From the sequence record NC_054911.1: a stretch of 64,000 nt of DNA, one strand, 5' to 3'. This document shows, in pieces, positions 26,177-30,951 of this stretch. Position numbers and translations under genes: made by a program. Position 1 is the first letter of the stretch. Each line of letters begins with the position of its first letter. A model generated the notes under the pieces. That model made no database searches. It was not told the origin of the DNA and was given only the letters and a program-made list of their open reading frames with translations. This stretch comes from Escherichia phage ECO4.

Positions 26177-26180
26177 CAAT

Positions 26181-26210
26181 GGGGACCGAAAGGTCCCCAT
26201 GTTTTTATTT
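26181..26210. terminator. bidirectional terminator between convergent gene 54 and the alt region
   Basis: GGGGACC-GAAA-GGTCCCC hairpin followed by T-run. Confidence 0.8.
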
Positions 26211-26495
26211 ACGGAATGAAATAAAAGCAGCAACTGAAGCAACAGAGGTTTCTTCAATATAAACCTCAATTTTTATCGGAGCTTCTGACTCAAATTTACC
26301 TGTTACTACACCCTGAAAAATACTTTCAGTCTGTTCTGGCTTTGAAAAATTTTCAGAAGGAAAAATTCCGAACTTTTTATCTGTTCCAAAAATTTTGATA
26401 AATTCATCGTAAACTGCTTCATTGAAAGCGTTATCAGCGGGAATAACGCCTTCAACGACGAGTTCTTGACCTAAAAAGCGCAAAGAAGATTTCAT
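26205..26495 (-). CDS. hypothetical protein downstream of the Alt genes
   Basis: 96-aa ORF with GAGGA RBS, immediately downstream of promoter cassette 26503..26556. Confidence 0.6.
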   Translation of the reverse strand: MKSSLRFLGQELVVEGVIPADNAFNEAVYDEFIKIFGTDKKFGIFPSENFSKPEQTESIFQGVVTGKFESEAPIKIEVYIEETSVASVAAFISFRK

Positions 26496-26502
26496 TTTGT
26501 GT

Positions 26503-26556
26503 TCCTCATGTTATGTCAGTAAGACTACTATAACACAACACGAGGGACTTGTAAAC
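26503..26556 (-). promoter_or_regulatory. early-type promoter/leader cassette, copy 1 of an exact 54-bp repeat
   Basis: Minus strand GTTTACA - 17 nt - TATAGT with TGn, then leader ending in GAGGA RBS; identical to 41827..41880. Confidence 0.6.
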
Positions 26557-28613
26557 TACATTTTGAACTTTTTAGACATTCCGTTGATGTTAACCAAAGA
26601 AGCTAAGATTTGAGAAACTTCGTTTTCCTCTTCTTTTGATTCTTCTACAAGGAATTGATTAAATCCAGCCATTGGACGAACTTCACCAGTTTCCATTAGA
26701 TGGTCGCCATCATATACTGATTCTTCTAATTGTTCAGAAGGAGGAACGATTGTACCTTCGATTAGATACTTGTTATAAGCAGTTTCTTTCATAAAGTAAG
26801 TACTTACTTTATTAATCTTCAGTAAAATTCCACGTGGTAGAATAACTTCAGCTTCTGATGGAAATCCTGACAAATGACCTGGAACGATAACTTTAACTCG
26901 TTCAGCTCCTTTAATTACCATACCCACGCTAGTTTCAGCATCTTCATTAGCATATGTAGAATGACTACCCATATGCATCAAATCTTCTGCATCAACGGAA
27001 CCTTCTCCTTCACCAGAAAATACTGCTCCGGAATCATCTAAGGCCATATAATTTTTACCATACTCACCAAAGATATTTGGTTTAAGTGATGTAGATACGA
27101 AGTTCTTGAAATAGAACATTTTATTTTCAATGTTATGACGCAAAGTTTTAAAAGTAACTTCTTGTCCACGGTAAAGTGTAGTTCCTGGAGGAAGAACTGA
27201 ACCTTTAGCAAACGCAGAATCCATAGTCTCGATGTGCTTAATAGCGCGCTCCATGTATTCTTCACGTGTAGAATCAGGTTTACCTAAAAGGAATGAGTTC
27301 ATTTCAACATACGAATCTGCACAATAATCTTCAATTACATCAGATTCAGCCTGAGTCAATCCTTTTGGAGTTACTTCAGTGCTTGCATATTCATACGCCT
27401 GAGCAGCGGATTCATCAATTAATTTATAAATGCCATTCATGACAAATTGAATAATAGCTGTCTTTTCATCTGGCGTAGCTTTAGAACCTTTAACTAAATC
27501 ATTGACAATTTTCTTAATAACATCAAAGCTATTAGAAATATTAATGTCAGCAAGATCGCTTAAAATTTTATCAGTTTTATAATCAAAAAATTCTTTATTC
27601 TTTAAATATTCTTGAGAACTTTGATATGTTATATCGCTCTGCAACTTGATAGATGGATCACGTAAACGTGCATGGGCTAATGCAATATGATTTCGGAAGC
27701 TTTCTAGTTCATAATCACTAGATTTAAAACGAGAAGCACTCCTCATACCACCGATAGCTCCTTTGCCGAAGTTTGAACCAATCTGAATAACGCCAGAGTT
27801 CATTGGTCCTTCTGCTTTATATACCGGAACTTTAGATTCAAACTCTTGATATTTCTTAGCAGCAAAGCTATCACCCTGAAGTGAAGCATCAACAGTAGAA
27901 TATTGAGCTTGTGCTGCTAATCGACGACTAATTTTAGTTTTCTGAATAACAGCTTGATCCGTACGCTTATCATTTTCTAAAGCAATAGAAGCAGCAACTG
28001 CGACAGCTTTAGGAACAGCATTACCTGTTTTAACGTCTACATAAACATCACCGACTTTCGATTCAACTTTTGTGAATAACTCAGTTGAAATAGGAGGTAC
28101 ACCTGGAATGTCTTCTAAATTGGCATTTTTACGGTAAACCATAATATATGCATATTTCTTATCATAGTCCCAGATTTCCTTTAAAAGAACATATCGACCT
28201 GCTCCTTTAGTACGTACTAAACGGTCAGCAATAACTTGCATTTGACGAGCAGCGCCATTTGTTTTACTTTTTAGTACGCGGAATAGGCATGCATCAATTT
28301 TATACTGTTTCATTGTTTGAAGAGCAGTATCAAAAACCGCATTAATGACACCAATTGGATTTCCACCCAAATTTTTAAGCTTAACTAACGATAATTTCTC
28401 ATTAACACCTATCATTACGATATGCATCATTTTGTCGCCTGGCTTAACGTTTTTATTCGTATCACCGCCAGAGGTGTATGTACAAAATCGAAATCCAGGA
28501 AGAACGCTTTCTTCACCGGCTTGAATAGCAAAAATTTGAGGTATTTTATGCTTAGGATTTAAGTTAACAACCGGCGCCGAAGCGCCGTCAAATAATTCTG
28601 TAATAAGTTCCAT
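26556..28613 (-). CDS. Alt-family mono-ADP-ribosyltransferase, paralog A
   Basis: 685 aa; shared N-terminal region MELITELFD...; R-S-E type motifs (YRGQ, FVSTSL, EAEVILPRG). Confidence 0.85.
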   Translation of the reverse strand: MELITELFDGASAPVVNLNPKHKIPQIFAIQAGEESVLPGFRFCTYTSGGDTNKNVKPGDKMMHIVMIGVNEKLSLVKLKNLGGNPIGVINAVFDTALQTMKQYKIDACLFRVLKSKTNGAARQMQVIADRLVRTKGAGRYVLLKEIWDYDKKYAYIMVYRKNANLEDIPGVPPISTELFTKVESKVGDVYVDVKTGNAVPKAVAVAASIALENDKRTDQAVIQKTKISRRLAAQAQYSTVDASLQGDSFAAKKYQEFESKVPVYKAEGPMNSGVIQIGSNFGKGAIGGMRSASRFKSSDYELESFRNHIALAHARLRDPSIKLQSDITYQSSQEYLKNKEFFDYKTDKILSDLADINISNSFDVIKKIVNDLVKGSKATPDEKTAIIQFVMNGIYKLIDESAAQAYEYASTEVTPKGLTQAESDVIEDYCADSYVEMNSFLLGKPDSTREEYMERAIKHIETMDSAFAKGSVLPPGTTLYRGQEVTFKTLRHNIENKMFYFKNFVSTSLKPNIFGEYGKNYMALDDSGAVFSGEGEGSVDAEDLMHMGSHSTYANEDAETSVGMVIKGAERVKVIVPGHLSGFPSEAEVILPRGILLKINKVSTYFMKETAYNKYLIEGTIVPPSEQLEESVYDGDHLMETGEVRPMAGFNQFLVEESKEEENEVSQILASLVNINGMSKKFKM

Positions 28614-28616
28614 GAT

Positions 28617-30713
28617 TTATCCTTGAACGAACTTGTAAGGCATGTTTGTAATATCTATGCAAGACGCAATAATTCCAAGAGATGATTCTACTTTCTGTTT
28701 AACATTTGATGAAACAAATGATGCAAAGTCAACTCTATCTTCTATTTCAATATCACCTGTCATTGCAACTACTTCACCGGTTTCCATTAAATGGTCTCCG
28801 TCATAGATTACCGATTCGGTGAGCTCTTCCGTGGTCATAACTTCAGCTTGAATGAGTTTTGTATTATTAGATGTTGTTCCGTCATTATTAGAAGCATCAG
28901 TTATTTTATTAACTTTGACCATCAATCCACGCGGTAGAATAACTTCAGCTTCTGTTGCTATTCCGAGACTTCCTGGATATACAACATTAACTTTATGAGC
29001 TCCATCAATTGCCCATCCTATTTGAACTTTAACGTATTCAGGATTTTCTTTATACGCTCTTATTTCGTTTGGATTAATAGTTATTCCTTCTTCATTTTTA
29101 TCAACTGTTAATTCATTGCGAGCTTCTGGTTCTAAAAGACCAATACCAGCATGTGTGATTCCAAAACGTCCAAAAATGATAGGAGTTAAAGAAGTAGATA
29201 CAAAATTTCTGAAGTAGAACACTTTATTTTTAACTAACGCTTCATATATAGGAGCAGTCATACTTTGAGCACGATAAACTGTAATGCCTTCTGGTATACG
29301 GTCACCATTTTCAAAAGCTGAATCTAAGTTATTTATAGCAGATTCAATTTCTTTTTCACTCATTACATCATATCGTTCTGGATTGTAACGACCTAAAAGA
29401 AGATTATTGATGTCAGTATATCCTGAACCGCAATATTCTCTAATGCCACGCTTTTGTGATGGAGTATATTTAGAACCATCGCGGGCAATAGTAATATCAA
29501 TCATTGGACCAGCACCAATTCCAGAAAAACTGTAAATCATTCGTTTGAGGAATTTAGTTTTTGCTGCGTTCCAGGAATTTTTAGTTATTTCTTCCCAGAC
29601 TTCATCTGGTTGTCCTTTACGATTTTTATTATGATTAGCAAGCCATTTATCTTTATAATCTTCAAAGAATTGATTTACAGCTGCTGCGTATTTCTCTAAA
29701 CATTTTATTGAAGTAGTTGGTTCATTTTTAATTGCATTAAAAATTACTTCTTTAATTTTTTCTGAAACTTCACCGACTTGACTCATTGGAAAGAATTTAT
29801 AATCATAGTGAAGTTCATCTGCCGTTCCTTCAGCAATAATTTTTGCTGCCTTTGTTTTAGAAGCTAATGAATTAATTCCAATTTTCATTTCTTCTGCTTC
29901 GGGAATTAAAGGTGCAGTAGCTGGTTTATTAAAATTAGCTGCTGTAGATTCATACTTCTGGAATAATTCACTTTCAAATCTAGAAGATTCCAATGACTGA
30001 CTTTGTGCAATTGCTCTACGGGAAATTTTAACTTTAACGATTACGGCTTGGTCAGAACGTTTATCATTTTCTTGTGCAATAGATGCAGCAATTGCCTCAT
30101 TTTTGGTTACTTGAGCTCCAGTATCTTTATTGATATAAACATCACCGACCTTCGATTCAACTTTAGTAAAAAGCTCGGTGCTAATTTCTGGAACTCCTGG
30201 AATGTCTTCTAGTGATACATTTTTACGATGTATAAGAATATATGCATACTTTTTATCGTAATCCCAGAGTTCCTTAAGAAGGACGTATCTGCCACCTGAA
30301 CGACTGCGGATGAGTCTATCAGCAATAAGTTGAATTTGTCGAGCTTGACCGGCGGTTTTAGACTTAAGAATACGAAGCATGCAGGCATCAATTTTATATT
30401 GACGCATTGTTTGCATTGCAACAGTAAAAACTGAATTGATATAATTAATCGGGCTTGGACCAAGACCTTTTAATTTAGCAATTGAACCTTTAGCAGTTAA
30501 TGTAAAAGGAACAATGTGCATCATTTTATCGCCCATCTTTAAATCACGATTAGTATCACCTCCAGATGTATAGGTACATAAACGAAAGCCTGGTTGTTCA
30601 ATTGCATCATCAACATGAACTGAAAAAATTTGTGGTATTTTCTTCTTTGGATTTAAGTTTGTAATCGGAAGAGTAGTATCTTCGTCAAATAATTCTGTAA
30701 TGAGTTCCATCAT
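28617..30713 (-). CDS. alt: Alt-family mono-ADP-ribosyltransferase, paralog B
   Basis: 698 aa; same N-terminal and catalytic motifs (YRAQ, FVSTSL, EAEVILPRG), diverged middle; which copy is the alt ortholog is not resolved. Confidence 0.85.
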   Translation of the reverse strand: MMELITELFDEDTTLPITNLNPKKKIPQIFSVHVDDAIEQPGFRLCTYTSGGDTNRDLKMGDKMMHIVPFTLTAKGSIAKLKGLGPSPINYINSVFTVAMQTMRQYKIDACMLRILKSKTAGQARQIQLIADRLIRSRSGGRYVLLKELWDYDKKYAYILIHRKNVSLEDIPGVPEISTELFTKVESKVGDVYINKDTGAQVTKNEAIAASIAQENDKRSDQAVIVKVKISRRAIAQSQSLESSRFESELFQKYESTAANFNKPATAPLIPEAEEMKIGINSLASKTKAAKIIAEGTADELHYDYKFFPMSQVGEVSEKIKEVIFNAIKNEPTTSIKCLEKYAAAVNQFFEDYKDKWLANHNKNRKGQPDEVWEEITKNSWNAAKTKFLKRMIYSFSGIGAGPMIDITIARDGSKYTPSQKRGIREYCGSGYTDINNLLLGRYNPERYDVMSEKEIESAINNLDSAFENGDRIPEGITVYRAQSMTAPIYEALVKNKVFYFRNFVSTSLTPIIFGRFGITHAGIGLLEPEARNELTVDKNEEGITINPNEIRAYKENPEYVKVQIGWAIDGAHKVNVVYPGSLGIATEAEVILPRGLMVKVNKITDASNNDGTTSNNTKLIQAEVMTTEELTESVIYDGDHLMETGEVVAMTGDIEIEDRVDFASFVSSNVKQKVESSLGIIASCIDITNMPYKFVQG

Positions 30714-30733
30714 ATCCTCTCTAGTGTTTATTC

Positions 30734-30741
30734 TATTTATA
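30734..30741 (-). promoter_or_regulatory. late promoter TATAAATA upstream of Alt paralog B
   Basis: Exact TATAAATA on minus strand about 20 nt upstream of the ATG at 30713. Confidence 0.55.
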
Positions 30742-30748
30742 AAATTAA

Positions 30749-30762
30749 AGGCCCGAAGGCCT
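30749..30762 (-). terminator. stem-loop after the ligase operon
   Basis: AGGCC-CGAA-GGCCT hairpin followed on minus strand by TTTAATTTTAT. Confidence 0.55.
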
Positions 30763-30951
30763 TTAATAATCTATTGGTAATAGAGTACGATATATTTCAA
30801 ACTTTGGACCTTTTTCATAAGCATCAAAAGTTTCTGTGAATTTATTATAAGCATATGCATCTATAAATTCAATCATGATTTGCGATACAGAAGTAGAAAC
30901 ATCTCCACCTTCTTTTTGAGCCACGACAATTGTTTCTAAGTAAGCTTTCAT
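30763..30951 (-). CDS. hypothetical protein downstream of DNA ligase
   Basis: 62-aa ORF whose ATG overlaps gene 30 stop (ATGA). Confidence 0.5.
   Translation of the reverse strand: MKAYLETIVVAQKEGGDVSTSVSQIMIEFIDAYAYNKFTETFDAYEKGPKFEIYRTLLPIDY

Follow-up and report, generated by a model that had tools for sequence, protein, structure and literature searches.

What is the second of the two Alt-like genes that stand side by side in Escherichia phage ECO4, in a place where T4 has one? T4 Alt is the textbook phage enzyme that is injected together with the DNA to reprogram the host. A sequence-only reading of a 64,000-nt stretch of the ECO4 genome (NC_054911.1; one strand, called the window below) had noted a single alt in T4 and supposed that the additional copy may be a duplication with a changed target-recognition domain. 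We compared the locus with other phage genomes and with its protein relatives. By these comparisons, the region is alt plus alt.-2 of a T2/RB14-like Tequatrovirus, T4 has lost most of alt.-2 by a repeat-mediated deletion, and Alt.-2 is most likely a second packaged and injected arginine ADP-ribosyltransferase (ART).

The list of open reading frames (ORFs) in the window holds two long adjacent frames on the minus strand, an upstream one at 28617..30713 (698 aa) and a downstream one at 26556..28613 (685 aa). The sequence-only reading had described the pair correctly, but the length of the upstream protein needs a correction. This ORF opens with two ATGs, and the mechanical count of 698 aa starts from the first of them. 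The second ATG is favoured by the Shine-Dalgarno spacing in GAGG-ATATG-ATG as well as by the annotations of T4 and RB14, such that the alt product would be 697 aa long (28617-30710). The two genes and their parts are as follows.

28617..30710, minus strand: alt, 697 aa, positional ortholog of T4 alt with an 'A-type' central and catalytic cassette (PF03496, E = 1e-37)
30006..30710, minus strand: N-terminal module of alt, residues 1-235, with the propeptide MELITE (gp21 site ITE-6; cleavage site from PMC5694885) and a conserved alpha/beta domain
29481..29978, minus strand: hypervariable central region of alt, residues 245-410 (identity profile, cassette search and profile-profile comparison)
28821..29480, minus strand: ADP-ribosyltransferase domain of alt, residues 411-630 (R480, S505-T-S507, E587-A-E589; Pfam and motif alignment), with the LTE-632 cleavage motif after it
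28614..28616, minus strand: 3-nt spacer ATC that separates the TAA stop of alt from the ATG of alt.-2 (read from the sequence)
26556..28613, minus strand: alt.-2, 685 aa, an intact second Alt paralog (PF03496, E = 8e-20)
27909..28613, minus strand: N-terminal module of alt.-2, residues 1-235, with the ITE-6 propeptide and the alpha/beta domain (~65% identity to the alt module; mean AlphaFold2 (AF2) confidence, pLDDT, 87.5)
27369..27896, minus strand: all-helical central region of alt.-2, residues 240-415 (no detectable homology to the centre of alt)
26739..27368, minus strand: ADP-ribosyltransferase domain of alt.-2, residues 416-625 (R482, S507-T-S509, E587-A-E589; Pfam, profile and fold)
26559..26720, minus strand: predicted acidic C-terminal propeptide of alt.-2, residues 632-685, after LEE-631 (which aligns with the mapped T4 site LTE-619; PMC5694885)

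The pair is widespread. A megablast search of 50,697 phage records with the 4.2-kb region as query gave 542 matching records, nearly all of them Tequatrovirus; in 277, a single stretch spanned 80% or more of the query. Alleles and modules were compared on representative loci. The best match was Yersinia phage PYps32T (99.9% identity). RB14 and RB51 are annotated with alt and alt.-2, for both of which RefSeq uses the name 'Alt-like RNA polymerase ADP-ribosyltransferase', and T2 has the same pair. The alt.-2 of RB14 and RB51 (YP_002854530), like an unnamed second Alt-like gene in T2 and many other Tequatrovirus, agrees with the downstream gene of the window in each module (96-100%), in its length of 685 aa and in the 3-nt junction. 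These counterparts differ in annotation name only ('hypothetical protein', 'Alt-like RNA polymerase ADP-ribosyltransferase' or 'alt_2'). The central cassette of alt.-2 is found at an identity of at least 90% in 400 phage records, and an intact alt.-2 is, as judged from these records, the majority state.

T4 itself has one intact alt gene (682 aa), as the sequence-only reading had it, and no second intact gene. Behind its alt come two short ORFs, alt.-1 (61 aa) and alt.-2 (67 aa), which the T4 record ascribes to an old duplication of the start of alt. Their products (NP_049810 and NP_049809) match residues 1-55 and 61-116 of Alt.-2 in the window at 89-98% identity, and the junction with alt is the same. 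They differ from the window gene in that a 1-nt deletion splits the frame and that codons ~117-680, including the whole catalytic domain, are gone. T4 DNA aligns to the window up to 28266 and picks up again at 26575, at the two copies of a short repeat.

28266..28274, minus strand: left copy of the 9-bp direct repeat CTAAAAAGT, at alt.-2 codon ~116, one breakpoint of the T4-type deletion
26567..26575, minus strand: right copy of the 9-bp direct repeat CTAAAAAGT, at alt.-2 codon ~680, the other breakpoint

When the 1,699 bp between the repeats are removed in silico, the T4 sequence is recovered, with 17 mismatches and a single 1-nt gap over 422 columns; this gap is the frameshift that divides T4 alt.-1 from alt.-2. 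The T4-type deletion junction occurs in 91 phage records, T4 included. Because T4 carries a remnant with a defined deletion, and because this junction is present in 91 records compared to 400 with the intact alt.-2 cassette, T4 is the derived, minority state. All T4-type remnants have this one junction in common, which speaks for one deletion event and against general decay.

Which of the two genes is the true alt ortholog had been left undecided. The answer is the upstream copy. It occupies the place after alt.1, its residues 1-245 are 99-100% and its last ~70 residues 93-97% identical to those of T4 Alt (NP_049811), and it shares the ITE-6 and LTE motifs, the R / S-T-S / E-x-E residues and the late-promoter context. 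Between these ends, identity falls to 15-35% over residues ~250-410 and to 62% over the ART domain. Since position, N-domain and C-terminus match while centre and ART domain diverge, we regard the upstream gene as a positional ortholog of T4 alt with a different core cassette, and its core is, by sequence comparison, replaced or highly diverged relative to T4. The A-type centre of the window is present at an identity of at least 90% in 314 records, including T2, T6 and RB68, whereas the T4-type and other centres score below 60%. This affects the idea of a changed target-recognition domain in the second copy: its centre does differ from that of its neighbour, but the centre also differs between alleles of alt itself, as the comparison of T4 with the window demonstrates.

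The two proteins of the window are 41% identical to each other (BLASTP, E = 1e-160), and the similarity is unevenly distributed. In a sliding comparison, identity is ~65% over residues 1-235, 10-30% over residues ~240-415, 30-57% in the catalytic region and 30-50% at the C-terminus. This bears out the earlier description of a shared N-terminal part of some 230 aa followed by a strongly differing middle; indeed, profile-profile comparison detected no homology between alt-type and alt.-2-type centres (hhalign probability 0.7%). At the nucleotide level, the similarity (68% identity) is confined to the first 690 nt. The genes alt and alt.-2 are old tandem paralogs.

Both copies retain the catalytic machinery of the family. 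The motifs that had been quoted from the window are all in place (YRAQ at residue 479 of Alt and YRGQ at 481 of Alt.-2, FVSTSL at 503 and 505, EAEVILPRG at 587 in both), and both proteins match PF03496 (ADPrib_exo_Tox) well above the gathering cut-off of 23.4 bits, with 129.9 bits for Alt (E 1e-37) and 71.5 bits for Alt.-2 (E 8e-20). The assignment of both as Alt-family paralogs with intact R-S-E motifs therefore stands, and neither copy has lost its catalytic motif. Across 58 diverse members of the family, R482, S507, E587 and E589 (Alt.-2 numbering) never vary, and S509 is present in all but one. The E-x-E motif is typical of arginine-specific R-S-E ARTs. The AF2 model of Alt.-2 (pLDDT 81, predicted template-modelling score 0.74) consists of an alpha/beta N-domain, an all-helical centre and the ART domain, in which residues 518-537 form a variable insert of low confidence. 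In T4 Alt, mutating the second Glu of E-x-E abolishes activity (PMC11404850). The motif counts as E574-M-E576 on NP_049811 (7455-9503 of our T4 locus L001), and the same paper names the inactivating mutation E577A, a mismatch that is probably a numbering offset. The N-terminal domain corresponds to PF26846 (Tevenvirinae_ADPRT), an assignment that was precomputed for near-identical homologs; by direct comparison, it is 99-100% (Alt) and ~67% (Alt.-2) identical to the N-domain of T4 Alt.

T4 Alt is a component of the prohead core with ~40 copies per head, and the prohead protease gp21 cuts it at ITE-6 and LTE-619 to give a product of 68.2 kDa (PMC5694885, PMC9026906); the mass that we computed from the sequence for residues 7-619 is likewise 68.2 kDa. 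The protein enters the host with the DNA and ADP-ribosylates Arg265 of one RNA polymerase alpha subunit as well as other host proteins, whereby some early promoters are enhanced (PMC5694885, PMC9026906, PMC2988021). Both window proteins have motifs of the gp21 type at either end, namely I/L-x-E at residue 6 and, ~55-65 residues before the C-terminal end, L-x-E. In Alt.-2, ITE-6 and LEE-631 lie at positions that align with the T4 Alt sites, and each of these two glutamates (E6 and E631) is conserved in 56 of 58 relatives. Cleavage would leave a predicted mature form of 69.1 kDa and remove an acidic C-terminal propeptide of 54 residues. By analogy with T4 Alt, the protein in which the sites were mapped (PMC5694885), we infer that gp21 also processes Alt.-2.

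With respect to expression, the sequence-only reading placed a late promoter in front of the upstream gene, and the motif is indeed there.

30734..30741, minus strand: late-promoter motif TATAAATA (T4 late-promoter consensus; motif match), 23 nt before the alt start codon

There are 19 matches to TATAAATA in the window compared to 9.1 expected; a single site counts as a motif match only. Another exact copy of TATAAATA occurs within the coding sequence of alt at 29330-29337 (minus strand), ~720 nt before alt.-2 begins, and may be due to chance or may be an internal late promoter of alt.-2. The junction between the two genes reads CAAGGA-TAA-ATC-ATG, with a Shine-Dalgarno-like AAGGA in the last codons of alt. 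The downstream ATG thus lies 3 nt past the upstream stop, as had been noted, a geometry that would allow translational coupling. The same 3-nt geometry recurs in T4 and at both junctions of the Dhakavirus QL01 array described below.

A comparison across phages shows that the locus is modular and that its parts recombine. All four combinations of an A-type or T4-type alt with an intact or a deleted alt.-2 occur, examples being the window, MLP2, vB_Eco_EL and T4. In Yersinia phage PST (NC_027404, locus L004, 1501-3561), a single hybrid gene of 686 aa stands between alt.1 and alt.-3. Its first ~300 nt are of the alt type (101 of 103 informative sites) and the remainder is of the alt.-2 type, which is the product expected of unequal crossing-over within the conserved N-domain of tandem paralogs. 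Metagenomic proteins show graded chimeras of the N-domain on an alt.-2-type body. A Logan metagenome contig that carries a hybrid gene (P0007) ends before the downstream neighbour, and the hybrid case rests on the complete PST genome.

The genus Dhakavirus provides a larger array. QL01 (NC_028847, locus L007, 147-6407) has three tandem Alt-like genes of 694, 681 and 707 aa, joined by identical GGGTAAATAATG junctions with the spacing TAA-ATA-ATG each time. The first copy corresponds to alt (A-type), and the third is alt.-2-like (47-66% identity). Between copy 1 and the alt of the window, the ART domain is 95% identical and the N-domain only 46%, and the synonymous divergence (dS) is 0.57 in the ART domain and above 2 in the N-domain. 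This contrast indicates that catalytic cassettes have been exchanged between genera. Many of the relatives found among 1.84 billion representative proteins match in two separate stretches, the N-domain and the ART domain, with nothing between. The alt locus is thus built of modules, with a conserved N-domain and propeptides on the one hand and hypervariable central and catalytic cassettes on the other.

What, then, might Alt.-2 do? Among alt.-2 orthologs, the ratio of nonsynonymous to synonymous substitutions (dN/dS) lies at 0.04-0.07 for the whole gene, at 0.02-0.03 for the ART domain and at 0.07-0.11 for the centre, values that speak for strong purifying selection. Because of this selection, and because both prohead-protease motifs are kept, Alt.-2 is most likely a second packaged and injected arginine ADP-ribosyltransferase. 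Each gene encodes a protein of ~76-78 kDa that consists of the 6-residue ITE propeptide, an alpha/beta domain of ~230 aa, a hypervariable helical centre, the ART domain and an acidic tail after L-x-E. We propose that alt and alt.-2 would be transcribed late as one message from the TATAAATA promoter in front of alt, with alt.-2 translated by coupling to alt. Both proteins would be incorporated into the core of the prohead, lose their two propeptides to gp21 cleavage and remain in the filled head. Injected with the DNA, they would mono-ADP-ribosylate arginines of host proteins ahead of any phage gene expression. The shared N-domain and the propeptides would serve as the delivery module, and the unrelated centres, together with the variable insert of the ART domain, would set different substrates for Alt and Alt.-2; a role of the central region as the target-recognition part is plausible. 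To this explanation as a whole, from old paralogs to distinct substrates, we assign a probability of roughly 80%.

Several points weigh against it. For Alt.-2, everything from packaging, cleavage and injection to activity and targets is carried over from T4 Alt, and substrate recognition by the central region is a guess. The coupling of alt.-2 to alt is suggested by the geometry of the junction only, and the TATAAATA within alt could itself drive alt.-2. The searchable literature yielded no experiment on Alt.-2 function or virion proteomics, only a comparative-genomics mention from 2006; on packaging, injection and host-protein modification by the A-type alt allele, it yielded no data either. 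Finally, T4 and 90 other records do without alt.-2, and since T4 alt is also non-essential (PMC9026906), any benefit of the second gene must be conditional.

The most serious alternative, which we nevertheless consider unlikely, is that Alt.-2 is a redundant back-up or dosage copy: though packaged and active, it would have essentially the same host targets as Alt. The two proteins have their catalytic residues and the E-x-E motif in common, the target range of T4 Alt is already broad (PMC2988021), and the loss of alt.-2 in 91 records suggests that it is dispensable. Yet the centres lack detectable homology, and the ART domains are only 30-57% identical and carry the variable insert. Moreover, each type is 93-100% conserved across hundreds of phages with dN/dS below 0.1, which fits two maintained specificities better than two interchangeable copies.

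It is considerably less probable that Alt.-2 is mainly a structural or scaffolding part of the prohead core, or acts late in the producing cell, rather than being an injected enzyme. Such a role would agree with the description of Alt as a prohead core protein (PMC11404850, PMC9026906) and with the apparently exclusive late expression of alt.-2. T4 heads assemble without alt.-2, however, and the strict conservation of the catalytic residues, along with the low dN/dS of the ART domain, argues for selection on enzymatic activity.

More improbable still is that Alt.-2 is a non-functional duplicate that is decaying towards the T4 state. The frameshifted and deleted remnant in T4 and 90 other records would be what such a process leaves behind, but the 685-codon ORF of the window is intact, its catalytic and cleavage motifs are all kept and its dN/dS is low. 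Furthermore, alt.-2 is found in ~400 records and has an ortholog in another genus (QL01 copy 3), and the single junction shared by the T4-type remnants again points to one event.

A recent duplication specific to this phage lineage, which the sequence-only reading implied, is scarcely credible: the genes are paralogs, adjacent and similar in their N-terminal thirds, but the copy is neither new nor lineage-specific, since nucleotide identity reaches only 68% and ends after 690 nt, the pair is spread across Tequatrovirus (RB14, RB51 and T2 carry it, and T4 keeps a remnant), and copies 1 and 3 of QL01 match the alt and alt.-2 types.

A broader view of the locus can be put forward tentatively, at odds that we place slightly below even. 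The alt locus might be a recombining array of injected effectors, in which a conserved delivery module (the N-domain and the two removed propeptides) is combined with swappable central and ART cassettes that are shuffled within and between genera, in one to three copies. Alt.-2 would then be a second injected enzyme with host targets of its own, possibly a defence or stress system, and would have escaped study because T4 deleted the gene. The N-domain may even be a general virion-delivery module for varied cargo domains. This idea gains some support from the recurrence of the N-domain fold elsewhere and from the existence of relatives that share the N-domain only. In BFVD, the fold recurs in myovirus proteins of unrelated length, such as A0A2L0UZ96 of Agrobacterium phage Atu_ph07, and some of the phage proteins that share it are annotated with zeta-toxin, deaminase or ParB-like domains. 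Three relatives (P0201, P0217 and P0231), proteins of 485-1,142 aa, match Alt in the N-domain only and give no Pfam ART match.

The surroundings of the pair follow the T4 arrangement, with the order ligase (gp30), alt.1, alt, alt.-2, alt.-3 and then gp54 on the opposite strand.

30763..30951, minus strand: alt.1, 62 aa, Pfam Phage_blade, the conserved upstream neighbour (ORF and Pfam)
30747..30764, minus strand: hairpin AAAGGCC-TTCG-GGCCTTT directly 3' of the alt.1 stop codon (read from the sequence)
26205..26495, minus strand: alt.-3, 96 aa, DUF5498, the conserved downstream neighbour (ORF and Pfam)

The hairpin is terminator-like and may split the alt.1/ligase transcript from the late alt promoter; it is missing from a consensus terminator scan because its T run is short. 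In scans of the region for sigma-70 promoters and terminators, the number of sites was no higher than in shuffled sequence. A sigma-70-like promoter (TTTACA-17-TATAGT with TG) lies at 26527-26555 (minus strand), within the 60-nt gap between alt.-2 and alt.-3, and a strong bidirectional hairpin terminator is situated at 26179-26200, between the convergent alt.-3 and gp54.

The gene pair as such is already known, being annotated in hundreds of public genomes, and both the T4 record and Nolan et al. 2006 (PMC1524935) had already pointed out paralogous duplications of alt. The present comparison adds the exact deletion behind the T4 remnant, a division of the locus into allele classes, the hybrid gene of PST, the array of three copies in Dhakavirus, an ART cassette common to two genera, and the conservation of both protease sites in Alt.-2. 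Most T4-like coliphages, T2 included, have a second intact Alt paralog under strong purifying selection. This conserved and probably injected enzyme is functionally unstudied because T4 lacks it, and if it has its own targets, the T4-based picture of immediate-early host takeover is incomplete for most of the genus. The locus also offers a compact natural case of module shuffling between tandem paralogs, with cassette alleles, an unequal-crossover hybrid and a repeat-mediated deletion.

How does the pair compare with known ADP-ribosyltransferases? By its position between DNA ligase/alt.1 and alt.-3/gp54, behind a late-promoter motif, the locus belongs to the Alt family. T4 Alt has been classed outside the genuine polyvalent proteins (PMC5512222). 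Pfam scans of the alt and alt.-2 proteins gave no match to a MuF domain, as would mark a MuF-fused ART (Iyer et al. 2017, 2022), and the N-terminal domain did not turn out to be a second, inactive ART fold of the Vip2, iota Ia or CDTa type. Neither sequence nor fold searches found a solved Alt structure, the matches being limited to the ART domains of distant toxins. Among these, the modelled ART domain of Alt.-2 superposes on the structures of Vis, C3, Certhrax, CDTa and Vip2, and the sequence profile matches the same toxins. Both proteins of the window therefore carry a C3/Vip2-type ART domain with intact R / S-T-S / E-x-E residues, sharing catalytic fold and motifs with the C3-like and Vip2/iota-type R-S-E toxins (Vis, C3bot, Certhrax, CDTa and Vip2). 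Closer to home are ModA and ModB of T4, which are small (~200 aa), are not known to have the N-domain or the propeptides, and are set apart from the Alt pair by this description. They belong to the same R-S-E clade as Alt and also act on host proteins, but, unlike T4 Alt, they are early products, synthesised once infection has begun instead of being delivered from the head (PMC5512222, PMC2988021).

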